IMG/VR virus record: IMGVR_UViG_3300045988_137393
Direction: 5' to 3' (one strand)
From: a virus
Length of the DNA stretch: 64,000 nt
This document shows positions 2,359 to 55,994 of the stretch, piece by piece; the first letter of the stretch is position 1; every line of letters begins with the position of its first letter. Made by a program: the position numbers and the translations under genes. The notes under the pieces are model-generated. The model saw only the letters and a program-made list of their open reading frames with translations. It was not told the origin of the DNA and made no database searches.

Positions 2359-5300
2359 TTATCTTCTTACTCCTTTGGCATAAGTTGCTTGGTTAATCTT
2401 TCTCACAACATTTTCAGCCTGTTTCTGAGCAACACCTTCCATCTGCTTAACAATCTTGTCTGTAGCGACACCTTCAACAATCGTTCTGTTGTCGATTTGA
2501 TAAGTAGGAGATTGGGATGAAACTTTCTCAATAGGAATGTTCTTCAGATTGCCAATAATAGAATCAATCTGTGGAATAACAGGCTTAAAATTCAACAATG
2601 CTTGCGTCTGTTCCTTAGAAAGTACAGCTTCGCCACGTTGTAAGAAACTAATACCATCTTCACCAGAAAGTTTAACAAGATCCTTAATCACACCGCCAGT
2701 TGAGAACGAAGCGTCTTTTATAAGTTTCTTGAGAGCTGAAGCAATTTTCTCTCTATCATTCTTACCAGACAAATCACTTTTTACAGATACACCAAGTTTC
2801 TTCGCAAGAGCAACTTCATTAGCTATACTCAGAACTTGTTTATGCTGTTTATCATAAAGATACTGATTAAGAGCACCGTAATACGATTTCTTGTGTGTTG
2901 CCGAATCTGAATGCTTAGATATCCATTCTGTAATATCACTTGCTTTCTTTTTGAGTTCATACAATTTCTGTTGCTTATCGGTATTGTTACTTCCTGAAGA
3001 ACCAGAACCGTTTCCGCTTGAAGTTCCTGAATCGTTTGATGATCCAATACCTTGTGTGTCTGTAACTTTTGTCTCTGCATACTTGGCACTTGCTTCAGCG
3101 GCTCTGTCAGCAGCATCACAAATAGATTGCCACGAAGATGCAATCAAACTAAGTTGTGCTGTAATGTTTGGAATGTTAGAAGATAATGTGCTTGCATAAT
3201 CACCTACAGCGTTTCCACCCTTTTCCCAAGCATTCACAATGTACGATGATATATCATATCCAGTATCCTTTGCGATTTTCTCAATATTAGATGCAACCTG
3301 TGAAGAGTTAGCATTTACATATGTGAGAGCATCAGAGAAAACTTTATCTGTATCTTTCAGGTAGTCTTCAGCTTGTTTTTTGCTATTTTCAAGCATCTTA
3401 TCGAGAGCATCTTCCTGATCGGAAACAGAATGATCGTACAACATGTCCGATCTATCTTTCTGTGCGTCTTGAAGATCGGATTTAAGTTGTTGTAATTTCT
3501 TCCGATTTTCTTCAGAATCGTCGCCTTCCAAAGCCGCAATCTGCTTTTCTAACTTAGCGATATTTTTATTAGAATCAGCTAACTTATCATTCCACTCTTT
3601 TAAGGACTTGTCTGTTTCTAACAATTCCTTTTTCTTCGAAATTGCTTCTTCCAAAGCATTATTCTGCGCATCTAATCCTTGCTTTACATAAGCAGCTAAC
3701 GACTTCTTCGCTTCATTAGCAGACTTGATAGAATCACGCTGACCTTGCTGATAAGTTCTCAACTTAGAGTTGTAATCGTTAAGACCAATTTTGCCCTCAT
3801 TATACATCTCATTCAAATCAGCAATAGCATCTTTGTACTTCTGAGCCTCAGCAAGATATGTATCATAATTCTGAGCGGTCAATCCCATAGCAGTAATACC
3901 ATCCTGCGTAATCATTCCCGTATCACTGTCAAACAGATTGTCAGAATCAAGCATGTCAATTAAGAAATCTGTCTCGTCCGTGATGTCTCCAAGCTTATCA
4001 AGTAACTCGTCAAAACGATCAAACTTCAACTCATTGATAGACTTTTGAAACTCCGCAAGTTCTTGCTCATCCTGTTGAATAGATTCATAGACACCATTTA
4101 ATGCTTCTTGTGCTTCATACCATTCATCGCTACCAAACTTAATCGTAGATAATTTCTTTGCAAGTTCTTCAGCTTCTTCCTGTTTAAGCTGCATATCAGA
4201 CTTAACGGCATCTGCTTGACGTGTATAATAAGCTTCACCTATTAACAGACCTTTTGCTTCAGCTATACTAAGAGAATTGGAAACAGCGTTCTTTCTCTGC
4301 TCAATCAGCCCGGCTTTATTGTCATATCTTGCCTGTACCTCATCAAAGTGATCTTTCCTAGTCTGACGCACATTAGAGGTATGATCCTCTTTAGCCTGAT
4401 TATAATTATCAGTTGCGGTATTCTTTGCAAGAAGATATTCATTATGTGCTATGCACTTTTTCCTAAGAGTGTCATTTTCAATCTTGTTAATAAGATTATA
4501 CGAAATTGACTTATTGGATTTTAAATTACTCTTAATAGAATTAAATTCATTTTGAGTAAGACCAATGTTTTTAGCTTTTGTTTTTTTAAGAGACTTTGTA
4601 AGAGAACTCTTATTGGATTTATAACTCTTTGTTGCACCAGTATAAGCAGTTTTTGAAGCTGATAACTGGCTATTGTAGTTTTTAATAATCTGTTTATACA
4701 GATTGTCAATATCAGACGTACCGATTTTCTTTGTTGGATTAAATGTAAGATTACCTACCTTGGCATTCAGAATATCCATCTTTGTTCCAAGTTTTTCAAT
4801 CTTATCAGAAGCACTGTCAATCGGGTTGTTCGCTAAAGTCTCATATAAATCCTTTAACTGATCCGTAAGACTGGTAACCTGTTCCTTGCAAGATTTTGCC
4901 TTTTCATACCAAGTCTGATAATCTTTCATGGCATTTTTCAGGTTTTCATTTTTGATAGTCTGGATTCCATCAGCGTCCAATGTACCATTACGGATAAGTT
5001 TCTTGTAATGTTCCAGTGTCTTGGATGATACACCTTTTTTGACCTTTTTTACATTCTTTCCGCTGCTAGAAGATGTAGATGTTGCATTGTTGATTTTGCT
5101 AAAACGTGAACCAGATACAAAATCCTTACGAGATGAAAGCTTGGAAACTCTTACAGATGCGCCAGTATGAGGGGATTCAATAAACTTACCGTCTCCACCA
5201 TAAATACCTACATGTGTGATGTTGTTTTTGCTTCCAAAGAATACTAAGTCACCAGCTTGCAAATTTTTCTTCGATGTGATTTTTGTCCCCATCTTAGCCT

Positions 5301-40103: not shown

Positions 40104-41026
40104 TATGATAATAGGAGAGGAGCGACCTCCCCATATTATATGTAGATTGGTAAGATCTACTGCCGATTGATTACCAGTCAACCGACAAAGAGAATATTGA
40201 AAATTCTCTGACATGTAATATTATCCAGTTGCAACGCCACATCGGAATTAAACCGAAATCTTCTCTGATATGAGACGCATGTTCAATCATGCTGATGACC
40301 TGGATAATATATTATTCTCCACATATTTTCAGTCTTCGGAGCAAAGACCTCTTGATAAGGTTTAATGACTCTTATCCGTCAATTAAGATTCTCATTAACG
40401 TAGAGAGGCACGAACATCTTCTCATTTCTGAAGGCTGAGATAAACCGATGATCCTAGATGTCGGTAGGAAAGAAATAGGACTTACAATACTACATGAATA
40501 ACAAATGCCAAGTTGATTTTTTCATATTTCAAATGAAACCGTGATGCTGTATCAACCCAATAACGGTTCACTATTTTGTGATTCTTATTGACTAACAGAA
40601 TCACTTTACCTACAACGATTAGAGGTGTTCCACACTTAACGGTGGTGGATTACCATATTTTTTAGTTGTCTACTAAGGCAAGATCTCTCCATAACACCGC
40701 CAATGAGCAGTAAGCAGTGGGAAGTTTTAGACCGTTCCAAAGTCAATAATTTCGCAAACCGACCTTTATATTTATGTCGCATATCGGTCAGCGACAGCTC
40801 ATTTGTAAAAGTCCGTCAACGGATTAACAGACCGCCCTCACTTCTTATGGATGTGAGCAGCTTTGTTATATTTTATTATTCTCTACATTGTCGTCACCTC
40901 TCGGCTCAAATATCACGTTGCTATGCTTTCTTGTTTAAATTAAATTGTTGATGTTGGACGAAAGCTTCATCGGTATCCTCAGTTTCTTCACGAATTATAT
41001 ACATCTGAATGGTTTCGGAAGGATTA
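40104..41026 (-). ncRNA. Large (~0.9 kb) ORF-free structured region, candidate giant ncRNA (N1)
   Basis: No credible ORF on either strand. The region looks richer in G+C than its flanks. It holds many stable hairpins and a possible pseudoknot at 40757-40796. It ends in the hairpin GGGGAGG-UCGCU-CCUCUCC (40114-40132), which pairs better on the minus strand (G-U versus A-C). Confidence 0.5.
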
Positions 41027-41980
41027 TTAAATTTCAACACTATCTTTTAACTTTCTTACCTTAGAAGTGTCTATTTTAATGTAATATTTTTTTGTGACAT
41101 CCGTTCCAGAATGATTTAACATTGTAGACACATCTTCCAAGCTAACACCTTCATTTTTAAGCAAAGTGGCATAACTATGACGAAAATCATGAGGATGTAA
41201 TGTTGGAACGCCAATCATATTTCCGATCTTTTTACACCAGTCATTTAATGTACCACTTTGAATCGGCTTATTTTCATTGGTGTATGGAGTAATAAATATT
41301 CTTCCGTGGTCATCAATGTTATTATCTTTTCTGTATTGAATTAGTTTCTCAAGATACCCCTTAGTTTCTCTACTAAAACTTAACTCAACAATTTTCCCCT
41401 CTTTTTCAAGCACATTACTACAAATTCTTTCATCAAAATCTACTTGTTCCCATTTTAAACTGCCAATAGCAGTAACTCTTGCCATAGTAGTTAAAGAAAG
41501 AAAAGCATATGCCTGTAACTGAATATCTCCATATTCTTCAAGTTTTTCACGCATTAACTGCACTTGATCTTTTGTAAGATATGTTTGCACAGCGATAGGT
41601 TGACCATTTTTAGGTCTATCAATAAATTCAGTAGGAGATTCTACAATCAATTTTTTCTTACGAAGGAATTTGTAAAATGCAGAAACAGAAGACATAACTC
41701 TTTTTTGTCTTGCAACATTATTCCCTTGTTGTTTCCTCCAATAATAGTATTCTGTGATATCATCCTCTGTTGCTTCCAATACAGATAAATTAAACTGATT
41801 ATCATACATATAAATAAACCATTGTCTTAAATCTATATTGTACGCATTAATAGTATTAACTGATAAATCACGAATAGACATATCTACTTGATACTTTTGA
41901 AACAGTTTTAATGTTTCAGGATTTATATGTTCAAGTTTATCTTCATCATACATTACAATTCTTTTGCTTCGTTCTGCCAT
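41027..41980 (-). CDS. int: Tyrosine integrase/recombinase
   Basis: HPHDFRHSYATLL...LNHSGTDVTKKYY provides the HxxR...Y catalytic signature. RBS GGAAGTGAG lies before MAERSK. Confidence 0.85.
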   Translation of the reverse strand: MAERSKRIVMYDEDKLEHINPETLKLFQKYQVDMSIRDLSVNTINAYNIDLRQWFIYMYDNQFNLSVLEATEDDITEYYYWRKQQGNNVARQKRVMSSVSAFYKFLRKKKLIVESPTEFIDRPKNGQPIAVQTYLTKDQVQLMREKLEEYGDIQLQAYAFLSLTTMARVTAIGSLKWEQVDFDERICSNVLEKEGKIVELSFSRETKGYLEKLIQYRKDNNIDDHGRIFITPYTNENKPIQSGTLNDWCKKIGNMIGVPTLHPHDFRHSYATLLKNEGVSLEDVSTMLNHSGTDVTKKYYIKIDTSKVRKLKDSVEI

Positions 41981-42043
41981 TTTCTCACTTCCTTTCATAA
42001 CAAAAAGAAGCAGTAGTAGTAATAACTAAACTGCTTCATCAAA

Positions 42044-42922
42044 CTATTTTCCATTCTTCATCTGTATATTTTGTATATCTGATACTTTTCTTGGTAATTT
42101 ATATTTATCACACCATTTTCGTATTGTATTGTCTGTAACTTTATACATATCAGCAATATGAGTAAATGGTGTAGATCTTATTAATTTCTTTAAATTATCT
42201 CTTGAAATAATATTATACAATTTTTCTGTATTATATTTTTTGTAACAAATTTCACACATTGTTGATGTTGAATTCATTAAATTTGTTTTGCAATATGGAC
42301 AAAGAATTTTAATCGTTTTATTATTGCGTTTTGTTTTAGCATTCTCTCGTCTATACTTATGTAAGCAAGAAATACATAAGCCACTTTTATTATTTTTACT
42401 AATTTTTGTTCCACATTCTTTACATATCAATTTATTCTTTATTACTCTTTTATAGTTATATACACCAAAATTGTCCGTCATACTATGACAATTAGGACAT
42501 AATATTTGCAAATTTGATAATTCATTATTATCATGATCTCCGTCAATGTGGTGTAATTGCAGTTTAACAGGTTTTCCCATCCATTCAGATATATTACATA
42601 GTTCACATTTATTTTCTTTATATCCAAGTTCAATTAACTTATTTCTTAATTTATGACTTTGTACTTTAGTATTTCTATGTAATTTCGATTCAATATCATA
42701 TTCTGAACATAAAGATTTTTTCGCCATTTGTTGTTTATATACTTTTCTGTTTTCTTCAAATTTAGAAGTATTTAGTTTATATTCATTTATGATTCTTTTT
42801 AACGTATTTGTGCTACTTGATGAATTTATTCCTGCAGCTCTAAGAATTTCTGTGTATGTATTACTTGAATCGAGCAAGCTTTGTAATTGTTCAGGTGAAA
42901 AATTATATAATTTACTCGCCAT
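42044..42922 (-). CDS. HNH endonuclease with zinc-ribbon repeats
   Basis: LQLHHIDGDHDNNELSNLQILCPNCH is the HNH motif, and several CxxC pairs follow. The start is moved to MASKLYNF, after GGAGGAATATA. Confidence 0.8.
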   Translation of the reverse strand: MASKLYNFSPEQLQSLLDSSNTYTEILRAAGINSSSSTNTLKRIINEYKLNTSKFEENRKVYKQQMAKKSLCSEYDIESKLHRNTKVQSHKLRNKLIELGYKENKCELCNISEWMGKPVKLQLHHIDGDHDNNELSNLQILCPNCHSMTDNFGVYNYKRVIKNKLICKECGTKISKNNKSGLCISCLHKYRRENAKTKRNNKTIKILCPYCKTNLMNSTSTMCEICYKKYNTEKLYNIISRDNLKKLIRSTPFTHIADMYKVTDNTIRKWCDKYKLPRKVSDIQNIQMKNGK

Positions 42923-43008
42923 TATATTCCTCCAATCTATTAATTTATTGAAGGTAGAGATAAACTTTATGTTTATAATTCTCTTTATTAATCGAACAGA
43001 TTGACCTA

Positions 43009-43093
43009 GTCCTCCCACTTGGTAACGCTCCAAGCCGATCCGAAGACGACAGATTTACAGTCTGCCCCACATCTTTAGTGGTCTATGAGAGGA
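43009..43093 (-). ncRNA. tRNA-Tyr(GUA)-like 85-nt cloverleaf with non-canonical D and T loops
   Basis: Acceptor UCCUCUC/GGGAGGA. D arm CCAC-UAAAGAU-GUGG has no GG. Anticodon arm is GCAGA-CUGUAAA-UCUGU. The long variable arm has a UUCG loop. The T-like arm CUUGG-AGCGUUA-CCAAG has no UUC. Confidence 0.4.
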
Positions 43094-43128
43094 TACAAAA
43101 AGAGTGTGCAGCATACACCACACACTCT
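43094..43128 (-). terminator. Rho-independent terminator
   Basis: AGAGTGTG(43101-43108)/CACACTCT(43121-43128), with UUUUUG on the minus strand. Confidence 0.7.
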
Positions 43129-43134
43129 AAATAT

Positions 43135-43809
43135 TTAAAAAATAAAATCAAGCAAATCAAATAATCTTCCAACCGAATTATATTCGTCAAAATCACTTAA
43201 ATCAATCGGCTTACTAGAATAAAATTCACGCTTTTCATATCCATTAACATCACTTTTAACAGAAGTAAATCCGTGAATTTTTCCGTTTTCATCTTTATCA
43301 AATGTAATATTTTTATGAGAATTATCACTTACGTCACTGCAACTGCAATTCTTACAATTACCATCACAATCATCGTCTACATCTTCAGCATCCTCACCAA
43401 TGTTGAATTCATGAATAATGCATCCAGAATCTTTATTGTCCTTGACAAAAGCTGAACTTACATCTCCATGAATAAATACAATGTCTGTCTCATCCATATT
43501 GATATAAGTATCACTTCCCTCATACTTGGTAGCCCGAACACATACATTCATTTCAGAATCAATACTAAGAATAAATGCATCATCATAACCGTCCAAATAA
43601 GGATCATTCAAATCGTTACAAGAAGCAAGTTTAAAATTCGTATTTTTAATAACAGAATTAAGAACATCTTTCATCACATCATACTTAGCCACAACTACAA
43701 TTTCTGAACAATCATCGTCATAATCTCTTGTACAAACATCCAGCTTGTCAAAAGTATCTGCTAAAAATTCAGCAAAATCATTTGTATCTGTAAAACCAAA
43801 TGTTTTCAA
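43135..43809 (-). CDS. Acidic Asp/Cys-rich hypothetical protein
   Basis: 224-aa ORF containing DDDCDGNCKNCSCSD. Confidence 0.65.
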   Translation of the reverse strand: MKTFGFTDTNDFAEFLADTFDKLDVCTRDYDDDCSEIVVVAKYDVMKDVLNSVIKNTNFKLASCNDLNDPYLDGYDDAFILSIDSEMNVCVRATKYEGSDTYINMDETDIVFIHGDVSSAFVKDNKDSGCIIHEFNIGEDAEDVDDDCDGNCKNCSCSDVSDNSHKNITFDKDENGKIHGFTSVKSDVNGYEKREFYSSKPIDLSDFDEYNSVGRLFDLLDFIF

Positions 43810-43830
43810 TATATTTTCACCACCTTAGAA

Positions 43831-44115
43831 TTAGAGCTGTTTTGCAGACTTTGACATCTTAAAGCAAATCTCATCATGCTGTGGAGTTACATATTCCTCA
43901 CCCTTGCGATCACCCATCATAATTTTTCCTCTACGCTCTGGAACTGTCTTAACCTTAAACTTTCCAAGTTTTCCAACTGCAACTGATTCTGCGTGATTTG
44001 CTGTTAATGTCTCTGTGATTACATCAGCAAAAGCATCAAGAATAACTGCGATGTCCTTCTGTGAAGCTCCCTCAACTTTATTTACTACTGCCTTTAATAC
44101 CTCGTTCTTTGTCAT
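43831..44115 (-). CDS. HU/IHF-family DNA-binding protein
   Basis: MTKNEVLKAVVNKVEGASQKDIAVILDAFADVITETL...GKFKVKTVPERRG fits the HU fold pattern. RBS AAAAGGAG. Confidence 0.75.
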   Translation of the reverse strand: MTKNEVLKAVVNKVEGASQKDIAVILDAFADVITETLTANHAESVAVGKLGKFKVKTVPERRGKIMMGDRKGEEYVTPQHDEICFKMSKSAKQL

Positions 44116-44321
44116 TTTAATTTTCTCCTTTTTTCTCAATTATTTATTTTTTTAATACAAAAAGAGGGTAGTGTTTCATTTGAGTACACTCCCTCCGATA
44201 CATACAATTGTGACAGCAACATCACAATTTCTATACAATCGGACTAATTAAAAGTAGAAAATTAGCCCAATTTTCATAGTTACTTATGCATAATATAAAA
44301 ACCAAGTCACTCGTACTTGGT

Positions 44322-45317
44322 CTACTTTGTCATGAAATTAGTAATAATTCTTGTCTTGGAATCAATAATGTCACCATTTGAATCCAATGCAAGATACATA
44401 AACCCGTTCTGATTTGGAATTATAAGTTTACCGTTGTTATAATCCAACTTATCCAAATCACACAAACAACCTTGCTCATACATTTTTATTCCACCTTGAG
44501 TAAAACTTCCTACTTTATGGGTATGAGCCATTACGATTCCAGTAAATGTGCGATCTACACGCAAGAAATAATTGACTGCCTTTTCTGTTGTTTTTAACAT
44601 ACCAGATGAATAATTTAATGTGTGACAGAAAATTACATTACCCTCTTTTATCCACCATTTTTTATCATAAACGATTTCAATATTTGAATCTTCAAACACT
44701 TCACGAATAGAAGAGTATTGTGTCTGGGTTTTATTTCTTTCATCATTAACTTTGAATCCATCGTCTACAATCATTTCTAGCGGATCTGTTGGAATGATGC
44801 CAAGTAATTCATTTGATAATCTATCAGAACAGTATCTTTGCATACGGTATTCATGATTTCCCATCACAAACATTACCTTTTTAGGTGTAGTCAGATTGAT
44901 TAAATCAATAATATACTGTCTTCCTAAAACAAGTTCTTCATCAAGATTTATTTTGAATTTTTTAGGAAATGCAGAACATGAAAAACAATCCAATAAATCA
45001 CCATTGACTATTAAAGTGTCTACAATTCCCTTATAACCTGAAAAAATATCAATAGGTAAATTAAACGGAATATGAACATCTGACACACATAAAATTCTTT
45101 CAGATGCACCCTCACAGTTGTGAATATAATTATCATACTCTTCATATCCAACAGCCTGTTTTCTAAGCTGATCTGGTGTAATGTTCAATCCAAGCATATC
45201 TCGAATTTCAATCCAATCCATATCTGTTTCCTTGCGCTTTTTCGCAAGACAACATCTCAATTTCCATTCAAAATCTGTTTCATTTTCTAATCTATGTAAG
45301 TCGATTATAATGTCCAC
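44322..45317 (-). CDS. Calcineurin-like metallophosphoesterase
   Basis: Motifs CVSDVHIP, NGDLLD, MGNHEY and AHTH. Confidence 0.75.
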   Translation of the reverse strand: MDIIIDLHRLENETDFEWKLRCCLAKKRKETDMDWIEIRDMLGLNITPDQLRKQAVGYEEYDNYIHNCEGASERILCVSDVHIPFNLPIDIFSGYKGIVDTLIVNGDLLDCFSCSAFPKKFKINLDEELVLGRQYIIDLINLTTPKKVMFVMGNHEYRMQRYCSDRLSNELLGIIPTDPLEMIVDDGFKVNDERNKTQTQYSSIREVFEDSNIEIVYDKKWWIKEGNVIFCHTLNYSSGMLKTTEKAVNYFLRVDRTFTGIVMAHTHKVGSFTQGGIKMYEQGCLCDLDKLDYNNGKLIIPNQNGFMYLALDSNGDIIDSKTRIITNFMTK

Positions 45318-47756: not shown

Positions 47757-50366
47757 TTAACAGTTTTTTGAAAAACATTTTAGCAAATTTGATGAATTTA
47801 TACTGTATAATACCTTCATTAACAATGATTTATTTTTATTAAGGACAGAAGATATTGATTTTTGATTTCGAATTGAACCAGGAAGAATTTTAAAACAACG
47901 ATCAATCATCCAAGAAAACAACCCAAGATAATTCTTAGATATTTTAATTGATTTCACTTCATAAATCATGTCATCAAAATCTTTTCTAAGCAATAAATAA
48001 TCATCATTCTCTGCATCATCGTTTATTTCATATAATTTTAATGAATATTTTGCTATAATTTCCTCAACCTTTCTACAAGTACGAATATTACTTTTCATTT
48101 CATATTTAACAAAAAAATGACTCATTGGCAGAGTTGTATCTGTATTATGAAACTTCATTAAATCCAAATCGTATAAGTAATTCATAGGACATTTTAAACT
48201 TTCGTTTATGTATTTTTCATTAAAACCTCTTTTGATTATTTTCCAAAACGAAGGATAAAGATTTGTTTTAATATCCATATCATCTTTTATTCTTTTGATT
48301 TCACCAGTTAAGTCGATGTCGAATCTTCTCTTTGCGTTATCAATAGCGACTTGAGCCAAAACACTTAATATACATACATAGTCAACATACTTTTGGTCAT
48401 CAAAATTACATGCATATGTTTGAGCTATTTGAGCTAAGTTGCTTGATTCGCCAATATCCAACTGAGATTTTGCTAAATTATTGTCAATTCCAGCATAATC
48501 GTCCATTGATTTACCATATATATTTTTCTCTTTTGGAATGTTATTTTTGATGGTAGGATAATTTTGATAGCATTTTCTCGCATGTTCTACAATATCACAT
48601 TGATTTGTTGTATACCCACTATCGGAATCTTGATCACTTCCATTGTTTCTATCCTGAAAATCTGTACCATTCATATTTACTGCAACGCACTGTTTTCCAA
48701 GGTTAAAATATTTTTCAAGATTTTTATGGTATATATTGTGAAGATATGTAAGATTGTTTTTACTATTAAAAGGACTTCTAAAGAAAGCTAGATATTCACC
48801 ACTATTAAATCTTTCAGTGTAACATTGAATTGTATTGCTTTCAGCAAAAAATGTGTCATCATTATCAACGTCAGACTCATTTCCTGTGGCAGCATATAAA
48901 AGCATTGCATATGGAGATCCAACTATTACTAAATTTTCAGCATTTTGAATAATACGTCCACTTTTCATATTTAACACATATCCTTTAATAATAGCTTTTT
49001 TTCTGTCACGAAAATATGAACTCCTTACAAAATCTGGATTTTGATTACACAAAGCAATTAAAACTTCGTAATCATTTGAAAAGTTTTTATTCTTCTCAAG
49101 ATATTTCAAAAACTCAGAATTGTCTTGTTTGAGTTTATTGATATACTCAACACTTTCCTTTACAACATTTGGCATTATTTTTTCATCAAGAGAGTTTACC
49201 ATTTGGTAGCTCATTCTCTGAACTTCTCCAAGTTTACTTTCATGTGCAGTTTTCACAATACCAAACATACAGCCGTTTTCATAAACTCGATCACACCAAT
49301 ATTCATACGACTTATCAAATTTCAACCATTTCATAGCATTGTCAGTTGTGATCAATTCAATATCCTTAACAAAATGTTCTACTCCAAACATATCTTTTAC
49401 AGTAGCAGAATAGTAATTCTCTCCAAAATAGTCTTTGAAAAATTGCTGGATATTTGTGCTAAAAGCTGCCATTTTACAAAAATGATGTCGTAATAATATA
49501 TATCCATTTCCCCAACTTGGGAAGATACTAGAATCAATTAACGCCTGTCCGTCAAACATCGTGTTCTTCAACTCGTAATTATCAATGTGTTTTGCATAGC
49601 AATGTTTGTTTTCATCTGTCTCAATACTAACTACTTTAGTAAAAAATGATCTATCCACATCTTTTAATATTAAAATATTCTTGGGATTAATTTTGACTTT
49701 ACCAACGACGGCACTGGATATGAGAGGAGCATAAGCACTAATTTCGACTGTAGGAGAATTCCTTTTAGGAAGTCGAATGCCCATATACAAAAATTTAATT
49801 GCTTTTTTATAAAGGCGATCACATATAAACATACACGAGCCTTTTTTTGCTTTTCCTGTACTTCTGTAAAGCATTTTGTAATGAATAGTTTCTCGTTTTA
49901 TGATATCACCGTTTTTCTTTCTGGTAATATATTCAACATTTACACCTTCATTATAAAACAATGTTCTTATTTCTTCTTTTGTGTGTTTGTGATATTTGTC
50001 TTTGTTCTTATTTGCTTCCTGAAATAATTGTGAAAGTTTTTTACGTTTGTTCCTTTTCTTTTGAATCTGACTATTATAGCCATATGATTTTGCAAGCTTA
50101 TATTCAGTTCTCGCATCTCTTGCGACTTTTTGTAAATGTGAAATCTCTTCATCGTAAGAACGAGAACCAAAATTAAATTCCAAACAAATTAAATCTCGTG
50201 TAGATTCTTCTTTCCATACCTTTAATCCATTTTCATTTAAAAAGTCACTAAAAAGGCTATTGGTAAACATCGCATCTTTATACTCATAATGATCTCTGAC
50301 ACCATTATTATACTCATAAAGGGTGCTTGCTTCAATATTCTTTATTTTAATTCCATATTCACTCAT
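47757..50366 (-). CDS. Large early protein, candidate YonO-like single-subunit (two-barrel) RNA polymerase
   Basis: 869-aa ORF. The segment ...LAFFRSPFNS...AVNMNGTDFQDRNNGSDQDSDSGY ends in a DxDxD triad (DQDSD, 48621-48635). An RxP element precedes it, as in YonO and RdRP-type polymerases. This is motif-level evidence only. Confidence 0.4.
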   Translation of the reverse strand: MSEYGIKIKNIEASTLYEYNNGVRDHYEYKDAMFTNSLFSDFLNENGLKVWKEESTRDLICLEFNFGSRSYDEEISHLQKVARDARTEYKLAKSYGYNSQIQKKRNKRKKLSQLFQEANKNKDKYHKHTKEEIRTLFYNEGVNVEYITRKKNGDIIKRETIHYKMLYRSTGKAKKGSCMFICDRLYKKAIKFLYMGIRLPKRNSPTVEISAYAPLISSAVVGKVKINPKNILILKDVDRSFFTKVVSIETDENKHCYAKHIDNYELKNTMFDGQALIDSSIFPSWGNGYILLRHHFCKMAAFSTNIQQFFKDYFGENYYSATVKDMFGVEHFVKDIELITTDNAMKWLKFDKSYEYWCDRVYENGCMFGIVKTAHESKLGEVQRMSYQMVNSLDEKIMPNVVKESVEYINKLKQDNSEFLKYLEKNKNFSNDYEVLIALCNQNPDFVRSSYFRDRKKAIIKGYVLNMKSGRIIQNAENLVIVGSPYAMLLYAATGNESDVDNDDTFFAESNTIQCYTERFNSGEYLAFFRSPFNSKNNLTYLHNIYHKNLEKYFNLGKQCVAVNMNGTDFQDRNNGSDQDSDSGYTTNQCDIVEHARKCYQNYPTIKNNIPKEKNIYGKSMDDYAGIDNNLAKSQLDIGESSNLAQIAQTYACNFDDQKYVDYVCILSVLAQVAIDNAKRRFDIDLTGEIKRIKDDMDIKTNLYPSFWKIIKRGFNEKYINESLKCPMNYLYDLDLMKFHNTDTTLPMSHFFVKYEMKSNIRTCRKVEEIIAKYSLKLYEINDDAENDDYLLLRKDFDDMIYEVKSIKISKNYLGLFSWMIDRCFKILPGSIRNQKSISSVLNKNKSLLMKVLYSINSSNLLKCFSKNC

Positions 50367-55906: not shown

Positions 55907-55994
55907 AGTCGCATTGAGCAGGCTCAGTCTACGCTTTTTTAAGCGGTTGTGAATTAAGCACATTTGAGAAGTGGTTCGATTCCACTTGCGACTT
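55907..55994 (+). ncRNA. tRNA-like element A (88 nt): canonical acceptor and T arm, aberrant centre
   Basis: Acceptor AGTCGCA/TGCGACT (7 bp) and T arm AGTGG-TTCGATT-CCACT are canonical. The interior holds GAG-CAGG-CTC, CGCTT-TTTT-AAGCG and TGTG-AATTAAG-CACA hairpins in place of normal D and anticodon arms. Confidence 0.5.

Follow-up and report, generated by a model that had tools for sequence, protein, structure and literature searches.

Few RNA tertiary contacts are as conserved as the elbow of transfer RNA (tRNA), at which the D and T loops join in the bend of the L-shaped molecule. The canonical elbow signature is G18 G19 in the D loop and U54 U55 C56 R57 A58 in the T loop. In bacterial tRNA-Tyr, the identity set consists of A73, G34 U35 in the anticodon and a long variable arm, with G1-C72 as a minor element. 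Several tRNAs carried by phages counter host defences: T5 tRNA-Tyr acts against retron-Eco7 (PMC11555353), T5 tRNA-Lys against PARIS (PMC11464382), and mycobacteriophages use anticodon-loop variants (PMC10264068). Retron-Eco7 and PrrC are among the tRNA-targeting defences countered in this way (PMC11555353). Here, we describe a gene for tRNA-Tyr with anticodon GUA in which both loops of the elbow differ from this signature. It lies at 43010-43092 on the minus strand of a 64,000-nucleotide (nt) stretch of viral DNA (IMG/VR record IMGVR_UViG_3300045988_137393), hereafter the window. Judging from its sequence and that of its relatives, the product is most likely a chargeable tRNA-Tyr, and we put the probability that this is a working phage gene at about 0.8.

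The minus strand of 43009-43093 reads UCCUCUCAUAGACCACUAAAGAUGUGGGGCAGACUGUAAAUCUGUCGUCUUCGGAUCGGCUUGGAGCGUUACCAAGUGGGAGGAC, and the gene is composed of the following parts.

43010-43092, minus strand: tRNA-Tyr(GUA) gene with alternative elbow, 83 nt from nucleotide 1 to the discriminator A73, as defined by relaxed ARAGORN, the covariance model R1 and family covariation (see below).
43086-43092, minus strand: acceptor 5' strand CCUCUCA, partner UGGGAGG at 43011-43017, one U-G pair, first pair C1-G72.
43082-43085, minus strand: linker UAGA after the acceptor, 4 nt, 2 more than in an ordinary tRNA, with U8 and A9 invariant in the family.
43067-43081, minus strand: D arm with stem CCAC/GUGG and a 7-nt loop UAAAGAU (43071-43077) without GG.
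43049-43065, minus strand: anticodon arm GCAGA-CUGUAAA-UCUGU, anticodon GUA at 43056-43058.
43038-43047, minus strand: long variable arm GUC-UUCG-GAU, a class II tRNA feature.
43018-43034, minus strand: T arm with a 5-base-pair (bp) stem CUUGG/CCAAG and loop AGCGUUA (43023-43029), i.e. A54 G55 C56 G57 U58 U59 A60.

This gene has the features that define a cloverleaf, i.e. a 7-bp acceptor, 5-bp anticodon and T stems, a 7-nt anticodon loop, U33 and a purine at position 37. The T stem adjoins the acceptor directly, with zero spacer, in both relaxed ARAGORN and the family alignment. The identity elements A73, anticodon GUA and long variable arm are all present, and the first pair is C1-G72 rather than G1-C72. 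Neither the U54 U55 C56 R57 A58 nor the G18 G19 signature is found, although C56, R57, one D-loop G and the G53-C61 pair are kept, and four nucleotides (UAGA) stand where an ordinary tRNA has two (8 and 9) between acceptor and D arm. CCA is absent from the DNA of the gene, where C43009 comes after A73 (43010). The minimum-free-energy fold of the single sequence is the five-helix cloverleaf (-28.6 kcal/mol, z = -2.05), and 7 of 200 shuffles were equally stable, which by itself is only modest support.

An earlier note on this DNA had drawn an 85-nt minus-strand cloverleaf here. Both the cloverleaf and its strand are real, but the gene has 83 nt and its register lies one base inside the one drawn. 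The acceptor proposed there, UCCUCUC/GGGAGGA, gives way to CCUCUCA/UGGGAGG in ARAGORN run with -ps and in the family alignment, and the irregular spacers of 5 and 1 nt are in fact a 4-nt linker and no spacer at all. The anticodon arm with its tRNA-Tyr loop, read from the sequence, stands (its stem is 98.5% paired in the family), as do the long variable arm with a UUCG loop and the placement of the gene between a terminator (hairpin at 43101-43128) and an HNH gene (HNH-motif open reading frame (ORF) at 42044-42922). The note also held that both elbow signatures are missing, which is true of GG in UAAAGAU and of UUC in AGCGUUA and overlooks the four elements retained.

Standard detectors pass over this gene. 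With default settings, ARAGORN called seven tRNAs in the window, six of them ordinary and one doubtful, and Rfam found the same six ordinary ones at gathering score (29 bits for RF00005); neither reported the gene at 43010-43092. RF00005 was not reported over it even at E <= 10 on a 501-nt stretch, in which there were chance matches only, e.g. an L20 leader on the terminator hairpin. Once thresholds were relaxed (-ps), a check that the earlier note had proposed, ARAGORN did call a tRNA-Tyr(GUA) at 43092-43009, with the CCUCUCA/UGGGAGG acceptor, discriminator A and 4-nt linker. In a distant blastn search, annotated phage tRNA-Tyr genes matched the locus over the anticodon and variable arms only, besides one unrelated flank match, and megablast of 42000-44500 against cultured phages gave zero matches. 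The gene is the sole tRNA-Tyr within the 64-kb window. The other six tRNAs are all canonical and none has an encoded CCA; the alternative elbow is thus restricted to the Tyr gene in the window.

Relatives of the gene were sought by scanning viral sequences with a pattern in which the Tyr anticodon loop is linked to the T loop, after which pairing of acceptor and T stem was required. The pattern fixed these two loops and placed no constraint on the D loop, U8, A9 and A73. The matches listed comprise 62 distinct tRNA-Tyr-like sequences from many metagenomes, most with G1-C72, A73 and an encoded CCA, and 53 of the 62 keep the 4-nt linker. The exact T-arm 17-mer CTTGGAGCGTTACCAAG is present in 54 viral stretches. 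In an alignment of 55 distinct family sequences (A1), U8, A9, the D loop UAAAGA, the anticodon loop CUGUAAA and the T loop G-AGC-UUA-C are invariant, and the window gene fits this pattern; A73 is found in at least 90% of the sequences. Every stem varies. Nevertheless, 96.0% of cloverleaf cells are paired, as against 64.0% in column shuffles and 36-44% with slid partners, and both partners have changed in 22 of 24 pairs (acceptor 7/7, D stem 4/4, anticodon stem 5/5, variable arm 3/3). The covariation score of 0.832 (versus 0.206) was reached in 0 of 500 shuffles. The helices that were not used for selection are paired at 96.8% (D stem), 98.5% (anticodon stem) and 93.9% (variable arm). Pair 1-72 is G-C in 37 sequences and C-G in 18, and in 30 of the 55 the bases at 7-66 do not pair, most of them being G.A.

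To compare the window gene with an independent model, we used a covariance model (R1) built from 34 family members, from which the C1-G72 clade of the window was left out. R1 matches 43010-43092 over its full length (model positions 1-84) with 79.3 bits and an E-value of 6e-20, and has zero matches to the six canonical tRNAs of the window. Within the clade of the window, the differences amount to two double compensatory changes in the anticodon stem, two changes from G.U to A-U, G/A alternation at R57, one D-loop position and one singleton mismatch. The window allele itself is 97-100% conserved in over 40 contigs, and its clade shows compensatory variation. Uncompensated stem disruptions and a lack of conservation past close relatives, the marks of a pseudogene, are not what we see. 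These findings show that strong purifying selection maintains both the cloverleaf and the exact loops of the gene. Because of the covariation in A1 and the match to R1, a decayed copy or a chance fold is excluded.

The family is large and is not confined to viral contigs. In a scan of bacterial genomes, about 16 of 120 among the matches listed are true members, most others being chance. The true members sit in dense tRNA arrays, mostly in Verrucomicrobia such as Chthoniobacter flavus Ellin428 and Verrucomicrobium sp. BvORR034 (among the matches listed), and further members, with the same restriction, come from Collinsella, Clostridiales and Acidobacteria metagenome-assembled genomes. In several arrays of 10-19 tRNAs, 70-100% of the members have G55 (UGCRANN or AGCRUUA), and the Met(CAU) and Ser tRNAs keep UUCRA. 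The arrays rich in G55 are found in the following records.

Verrucomicrobia genome records: L243, L327, L256, L265, L273, L283, L294 and L320.
Viral contig: L144.

Among cultured phages, one, Vibrio phage CHOED (KJ192399.2, 56549-56631; L333, 1494-1576), carries a member, which scores 83.1 bits with R1. The CHOED record has zero annotated feature at this alternative-elbow tRNA-Tyr, only tRNA-Asn and tRNA-Ser being annotated nearby. A second unannotated tRNA, canonical-looking, comes right after it in CHOED (L333, approximately 1585-1660).

The alternative elbow extends well beyond tRNA-Tyr. The loop GGAGCRUUACC, with covarying T stems, also occurs in tRNA-like genes of phage tRNA clusters, which default ARAGORN often misses. 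A census of this T loop returned class I tRNAs for Ala, Cys, Gly, Glu, Asp, Gln, Pro, Val, Ile, Lys, Phe and Thr, together with amber suppressors; alternative-elbow CUA tRNAs with Gln-type acceptor ends were seen in L001 and L035. We compared their acceptor ends with the identity marks known from work in E. coli. The marks agree with the anticodon (G3.U70 for Ala; U73 for Cys and Gly; G73 for Asp, Glu and Gln; C1-G72/A73 for Pro), and CCA is encoded in most class I alternative-elbow tRNAs. The Rfam tRNA model still finds these class I tRNAs, at 44-49 bits, and finds none of the Tyr members in L265, L027 and the window.

How the two loops change together was assessed by cross-tabulating 947 distinct tRNAs, i.e. 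the default ARAGORN calls in the fetched loci, by the nucleotide at position 55 and by the presence of GG in the D loop.

G55: D loop without GG, 190; D loop with GG, 17.
U55: D loop without GG, 33; D loop with GG, 701.

The association between G55 and loss of GG has an odds ratio of 237 and a Fisher p of 4e-141, although the sequences are related, so that p overstates their independence. Typical D loops are one base apart, AAUGGUA or AGUUGGUA with U55 versus AAUAGUA, AACAGCA or AAAAGUA with G55. Position 54 covaries with 58, U54 going with A58 in 862 of 864 tRNAs and A54 with U58 in 52 and A58 in 14. All four combinations of the two exchanges occur, namely UUCRA, UGCRA, AUCGUUA with GG, and AGCRUUA with AG. 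We read this as the independent replacement of two elbow tertiary pairs, G18.U55 by what would be A18.G55 and U54.A58 by a putative A54.U58 pair, the geometry being deduced from the covariation, with R57 and G53-C61 retained and G19-C56 probably so. The elbow thus looks re-paired, not lost. A Watson-Crick kissing interaction of the D loop UAAAG with the T loop CRUUA fits the Tyr sub-family by eye and was rejected as a rule for the whole group, since it fails on class I D loops. Inspection of the Tyr and class I data showed no covariation of R57 with the D loop. Enrichment for particular anticodons, e.g. the GUN family, was ruled out, since G55 tRNAs span almost all specificities.

We propose the following route from the gene to a functional tRNA. 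It would be transcribed with the surrounding minus-strand tRNA/HNH region, through or despite the upstream hairpin, and the transcript would be trimmed by host ribonuclease P and 3' processing enzymes. As no tRNA gene of the phage encodes CCA, a host enzyme would add it. Host tyrosyl-tRNA synthetase (TyrRS) would then charge the RNA, which would read UAY codons. In this tRNA, the two loops would meet at the elbow through an alternative, mutually matched set of nucleotides, with A-G in the D loop in place of G18-G19, and A54 G55 C56 R57 U58 in place of the ordinary U54 U55 C56 R57 A58. A plausible benefit would be folding of the elbow without the T54, Psi55 and Gm18 modifications; another, equally conditional, is that the tRNA would be insensitive to factors recognizing a canonical T loop, such as host nucleases, toxins or the phage's own host-shutoff activity.

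Several points weigh against the reading of the gene as a working tRNA-Tyr with a re-paired elbow. The window allele has C1-G72 where bacteria have G1-C72, and E. coli TyrRS discriminates pair 1-72 in microhelices; the efficiency of charging in the host is uncertain. The gene begins 8 nt past a terminator-like hairpin and would need read-through or an unseen promoter, and we know of no structural precedent for the 4-nt linker. The tertiary-pair reading is an association between sequences, not a structure, with a p-value inflated by kinship, and the counts are biased for the AGCRUUA-type loop because many loci were fetched by T-loop patterns, the UGCRA class being unselected.

The gene is flanked by the following features.

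43101-43128, minus strand: terminator-like hairpin with a U run (pattern scan), ending 8 nt ahead of the tRNA; conserved upstream boundary of the swap site described below.
43135-43809, minus strand: upstream ORF of 224 amino acids (aa) without a Pfam family, used as anchor for finding orthologous loci.
42044-42922, minus strand: downstream HNH-like ORF, Pfam HNH at 20.7 bits (cut-off 21.4) with a visible HH..N..H motif.
41027-41998: tyrosine recombinase gene, about 1 kb downstream of the tRNA-Tyr gene, with the HNH gene between the two.

Through the 224-aa upstream ORF, we found orthologous loci in 46 viral contigs, 37 at 93-99% protein identity and 9 at approximately 54%. The relatives have the identical hairpin, followed at the matching position by a tRNA-sized cassette that varies by contig, as listed here.

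Window sequence, 97-100% identical: 19 of 46 loci, 2 of these in the 54% clade.
Ordinary tRNA-Tyr(GUA), called by default ARAGORN: about 21 loci with GG and UUCGA loops, falling into six or more deeply different sequences.
tRNA-Asn: 1 locus.
tRNA-like sequence with an insertion of approximately 40 nt in the anticodon loop: 2 loci.
Nothing detected: 3 loci.

The at least six deeply different Tyr sequences occur among phages that are about 97% identical in the flanking gene, and the downstream flank recombines separately from the cassette. The window allele is therefore one of several interchangeable cassettes at this site. The earlier note had suggested a comparison with orthologous loci and had named a canonical tRNA-Tyr in relatives, with this copy randomly disabled, as a result that would speak against its reading; a canonical tRNA-Tyr is indeed found at the same site in relatives, but the window copy is no mutated version of any of them. 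The HNH gene occurs in 2 of the 46 relatives, and in 2 of the 19 loci with the window allele; it is a sporadic insertion beside the tRNA, not part of its function.

Not all alleles called ordinary are alike. Rfam found those of L056 and L058 at 48.8 and 55.2 bits, and that of L062 was found by ARAGORN only. The allele shared by L062-L064 and L068 (4719-4803) has an unusual D arm (AAACAACUACGGAGAUUG) and is called by default ARAGORN and not at the Rfam gathering score; it is a second atypical Tyr allele at the swap site. In L067 and L076 (approximately 4718-4820), the site holds a tRNA-like gene whose D and T arms are canonical and whose anticodon stem AUCUA/UGGAU encloses about 40 nt that could be an insertion or a small intron. 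Elsewhere in near-identical phages (L090, 8454-8529, versus L089 and L060), either a tRNA-Trp(CCA) or a tRNA with anticodon CUA occupies the matching position, and the latter looks like an amber suppressor that arose through an anticodon change.

Some observations in the window stand apart from the tRNA-Tyr gene. A 'tRNA-?' reported by ARAGORN at 55907-55994 (plus strand) has a canonical T arm (GTGGTTCGATTCCAC), a 7-bp acceptor, a long extra arm and a 6-nt anticodon loop; it lies on the strand opposite to all other window tRNAs and is not reported by Rfam. The approximately 920 nt at 40105-41026 (minus strand), between tRNA-Met and the tyrosine recombinase gene, contain no ORF of more than 50 aa and nothing at Rfam gathering score, and include a weak tRNA-Asn-like fragment (40794-40860) with anticodon loop CUGUUAA, no T arm and 10.9 bits with R1. 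An 869-aa protein without a Pfam family is encoded at 47757-50366 (minus strand). Among cultured phages, its only relatives are Enterocloster and Clostridium phage proteins (23-25% identity), one of which is annotated as 'RNA-dependent RNA polymerase', together with unannotated human faecal phage records (27-56%). These relatives suggest gut Clostridia as possible hosts of the phage.

Other explanations have to be weighed against a working tRNA-Tyr. The earlier note had considered a decayed tRNA gene. That the gene is a pseudogene, a chance fold or an attP-type piece of a tRNA next to the tyrosine recombinase gene is scarcely credible, although the failure of standard detectors, the presence of the recombinase gene about 1 kb downstream and a fold z-score of only -2.05 speak for it. 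The gene is full length with both acceptor strands, it matches a family model built without its own clade, its allele is conserved in the many contigs described above, and most relatives with the allele have no adjacent HNH. What we find is a separate conserved lineage, with compensatory changes in all helices and invariant alternative loops. An attP site or tRNA fragment was rejected on its own account, since the gene has its own 5' acceptor strand, and an HNH gene, absent in 44 of the 46 relatives, lies between recombinase and tRNA. A selective cause at the level of DNA seems unlikely to us. According to this explanation, the T-arm sequence would destroy the site of a homing endonuclease, e.g. 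the neighbouring HNH protein, that cuts canonical tRNA genes, and RNA function would be secondary. An HNH-like gene does lie directly downstream, the site acts as a hot spot of cassette exchange, and tRNA gene regions are targets of T4 SegB and of homing endonucleases linked to arrays, as cited in PMC8421152. However, HNH accompanies the window allele in only those two loci, and was therefore rejected as driver of the allele; the loops are invariant over unrelated phages and bacterial arrays with every stem varying, and the T loop covaries with a D loop that lies about 45 nt from it, which indicates a constraint at the RNA level.

The remaining alternatives concern what the RNA is for. An uncharged decoy, also raised in the earlier note, would be a tRNA-shaped RNA that absorbs a nuclease or binding protein directed at tRNA-Tyr and is unused in translation. 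The canonical anticodon stem-loop on an altered body, the fact that tRNA-Tyr is a known target of defence (PMC11555353) and the failure of Rfam and default ARAGORN to recognize the gene are all compatible with such a role, which we still judge quite improbable. Conservation extends to A73, to the long variable arm and to an acceptor that is paired throughout, the gene is the sole tRNA-Tyr in the window at a site where relatives have an ordinary one, and the elbow is common to tRNAs with about 15 different specificities, every one of which has identity marks of its own at the acceptor, needless for a decoy. Because these marks match the anticodon across the wider group and most relatives encode CCA, chargeable tRNAs are favoured over decoys. 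The note's further suggestion of a deliberately altered tRNA finds support in one particular respect, namely that both loops are co-substituted across hundreds of tRNAs of phages and mobile elements. It is possible, although we hold the idea only tentatively, that the alternative elbow marks self from non-self, sparing phage tRNAs from a nuclease or other factor that reads the T54-Psi55 T loop or the elbow while leaving translation intact. This factor could be a host defence, a toxin or a phage-encoded host-shutoff tRNase. Such marking is a selective reason on top of a working tRNA-Tyr, not a replacement for it. The hypervariable site, with its deeply different Tyr sequences beside a nearly identical flanking gene, the prevalence of G55 throughout whole arrays and the documented use of phage tRNAs against tRNA-targeting defences (PMC11555353, PMC11464382, PMC10264068) speak for it. 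On the other hand, canonical and alternative alleles coexist in one phage background, the anticodon loop, which is the usual nuclease target, is unaltered, and the Met(CAU) and Ser tRNAs of the same arrays retain UUCRA. As for a connection with retron or anticodon-nuclease defences, the latter raised in the earlier note, the evidence tips neither way: the elbow is where the gene differs, and its anticodon loop is entirely canonical. The diversity of alleles at the tRNA-Tyr site fits conflict-driven turnover and cassette exchange by recombination equally well.

Taken together, a working tRNA-Tyr remains the preferred reading, and the search that led to it exposes a widespread tRNA group with Tyr members missed by standard detectors. 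The annotation gap affects both the Rfam tRNA model and default ARAGORN, and the CHOED member is unannotated; phage tRNA counts and analyses of codon supply are therefore too low. The group also represents a natural experiment on the tRNA elbow, in which two pairs appear to have been exchanged in hundreds of independent sequences and in all four combinations, and it raises the question of what T54, Psi55 and G18 do beyond folding and whether phages use an alternative elbow to escape host factors. Swaps of canonical and alternative tRNA-Tyr at one site offer near-isogenic comparisons, and CHOED with Vibrio anguillarum a culturable system. More speculatively, and with much less confidence than in the tRNA-Tyr gene itself, phage and array-borne tRNAs with a re-paired elbow (A18.G55, with or without A54.U58) might form a large, horizontally mobile clade whose elbow is a mark that sets them apart from host tRNAs and makes them independent of, or invisible to, machinery that reads T54-Psi55. 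If so, modification enzymes, tRNases directed at the T loop or elbow and possibly phage host-shutoff nucleases would be evaded, phage translation would continue while canonical tRNAs are attacked, and the hypervariable tRNA-Tyr site would be one front of this conflict.

A literature search (motif, A54/U58, A18/G55, non-canonical phage tRNAs and tRNA arrays) found no published description of this loop pair, which is not proof of novelty. It is undescribed in studies of non-canonical tRNAs (PMC7609411), T-loop conservation (PMC7912444) and unusual tertiary pairs (PMC7566577), and in PMC8421152 and PMC11555353. Compared with canonical class II tRNA-Tyr (RF00005), the window gene has the same 7-bp acceptor, stacked 5-bp T stem, CUGUAAA loop, A73, long variable arm, G53-C61, C56 and R57, and it occupies the site of an ordinary tRNA-Tyr in sister phages. 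It differs in having UAAAGAU without GG, AGCGUUA instead of UUCRANY, a 4-nt instead of a 2-nt linker, and C1-G72. Like tRNAPyl and type II mitochondrial tRNAs, which are functional without G18G19 and T-Psi-C through other contacts of the D and T loops (PMC7609411), it would do without the usual elbow; in those tRNAs, however, the D loops are short, the stems differ in length and the loops are not conserved, whereas the alternative-elbow tRNAs have standard arm lengths, invariant replacement loops over many specificities and a setting in phages and mobile arrays. In eukaryotic initiator tRNA and AGC-tRNAAla with A54.A58 (PMC7566577, PMC7912444), the 54.58 pair is likewise replaced and position 60 is a purine. 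These tRNAs keep U55/G18 and are reported absent from bacteria, whereas the window gene would have A54.U58 with G55/A18.

The genomic setting invites similar comparisons. Like the phage tRNAs that counter defences, the window gene is a phage-borne isoacceptor of a tRNA that is a known target, at a fast-exchanging locus. In the known cases, however, dosage or changes in the anticodon loop are used, whereas here the elbow is altered and the anticodon loop is canonical. The L-arrays of PMC8421152, which have homing endonucleases as neighbours, resemble the dense arrays of 10-19 genes in which relatives of the window gene are found (Verrucomicrobia and phage contigs), with HNH near and supernumerary isodecoders; a text search of that paper showed no mention of altered T or D loops. 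Unlike a member of such arrays, the window gene is a single cassette amid canonical phage tRNAs. The allo-tRNAs with 8/4 and 9/3 cloverleaves (PMC7609411) are also non-canonical, of metagenomic origin, equipped with many anticodons and missed by standard tools. They have changed helix lengths and Ser/Leu identity, whereas the alternative-elbow tRNAs keep the 7/5 geometry and their identity follows the anticodon. The window gene is thus, by its predicted function and fold, a tRNA, yet one that fails several of the sequence features by which detectors define tRNAs.

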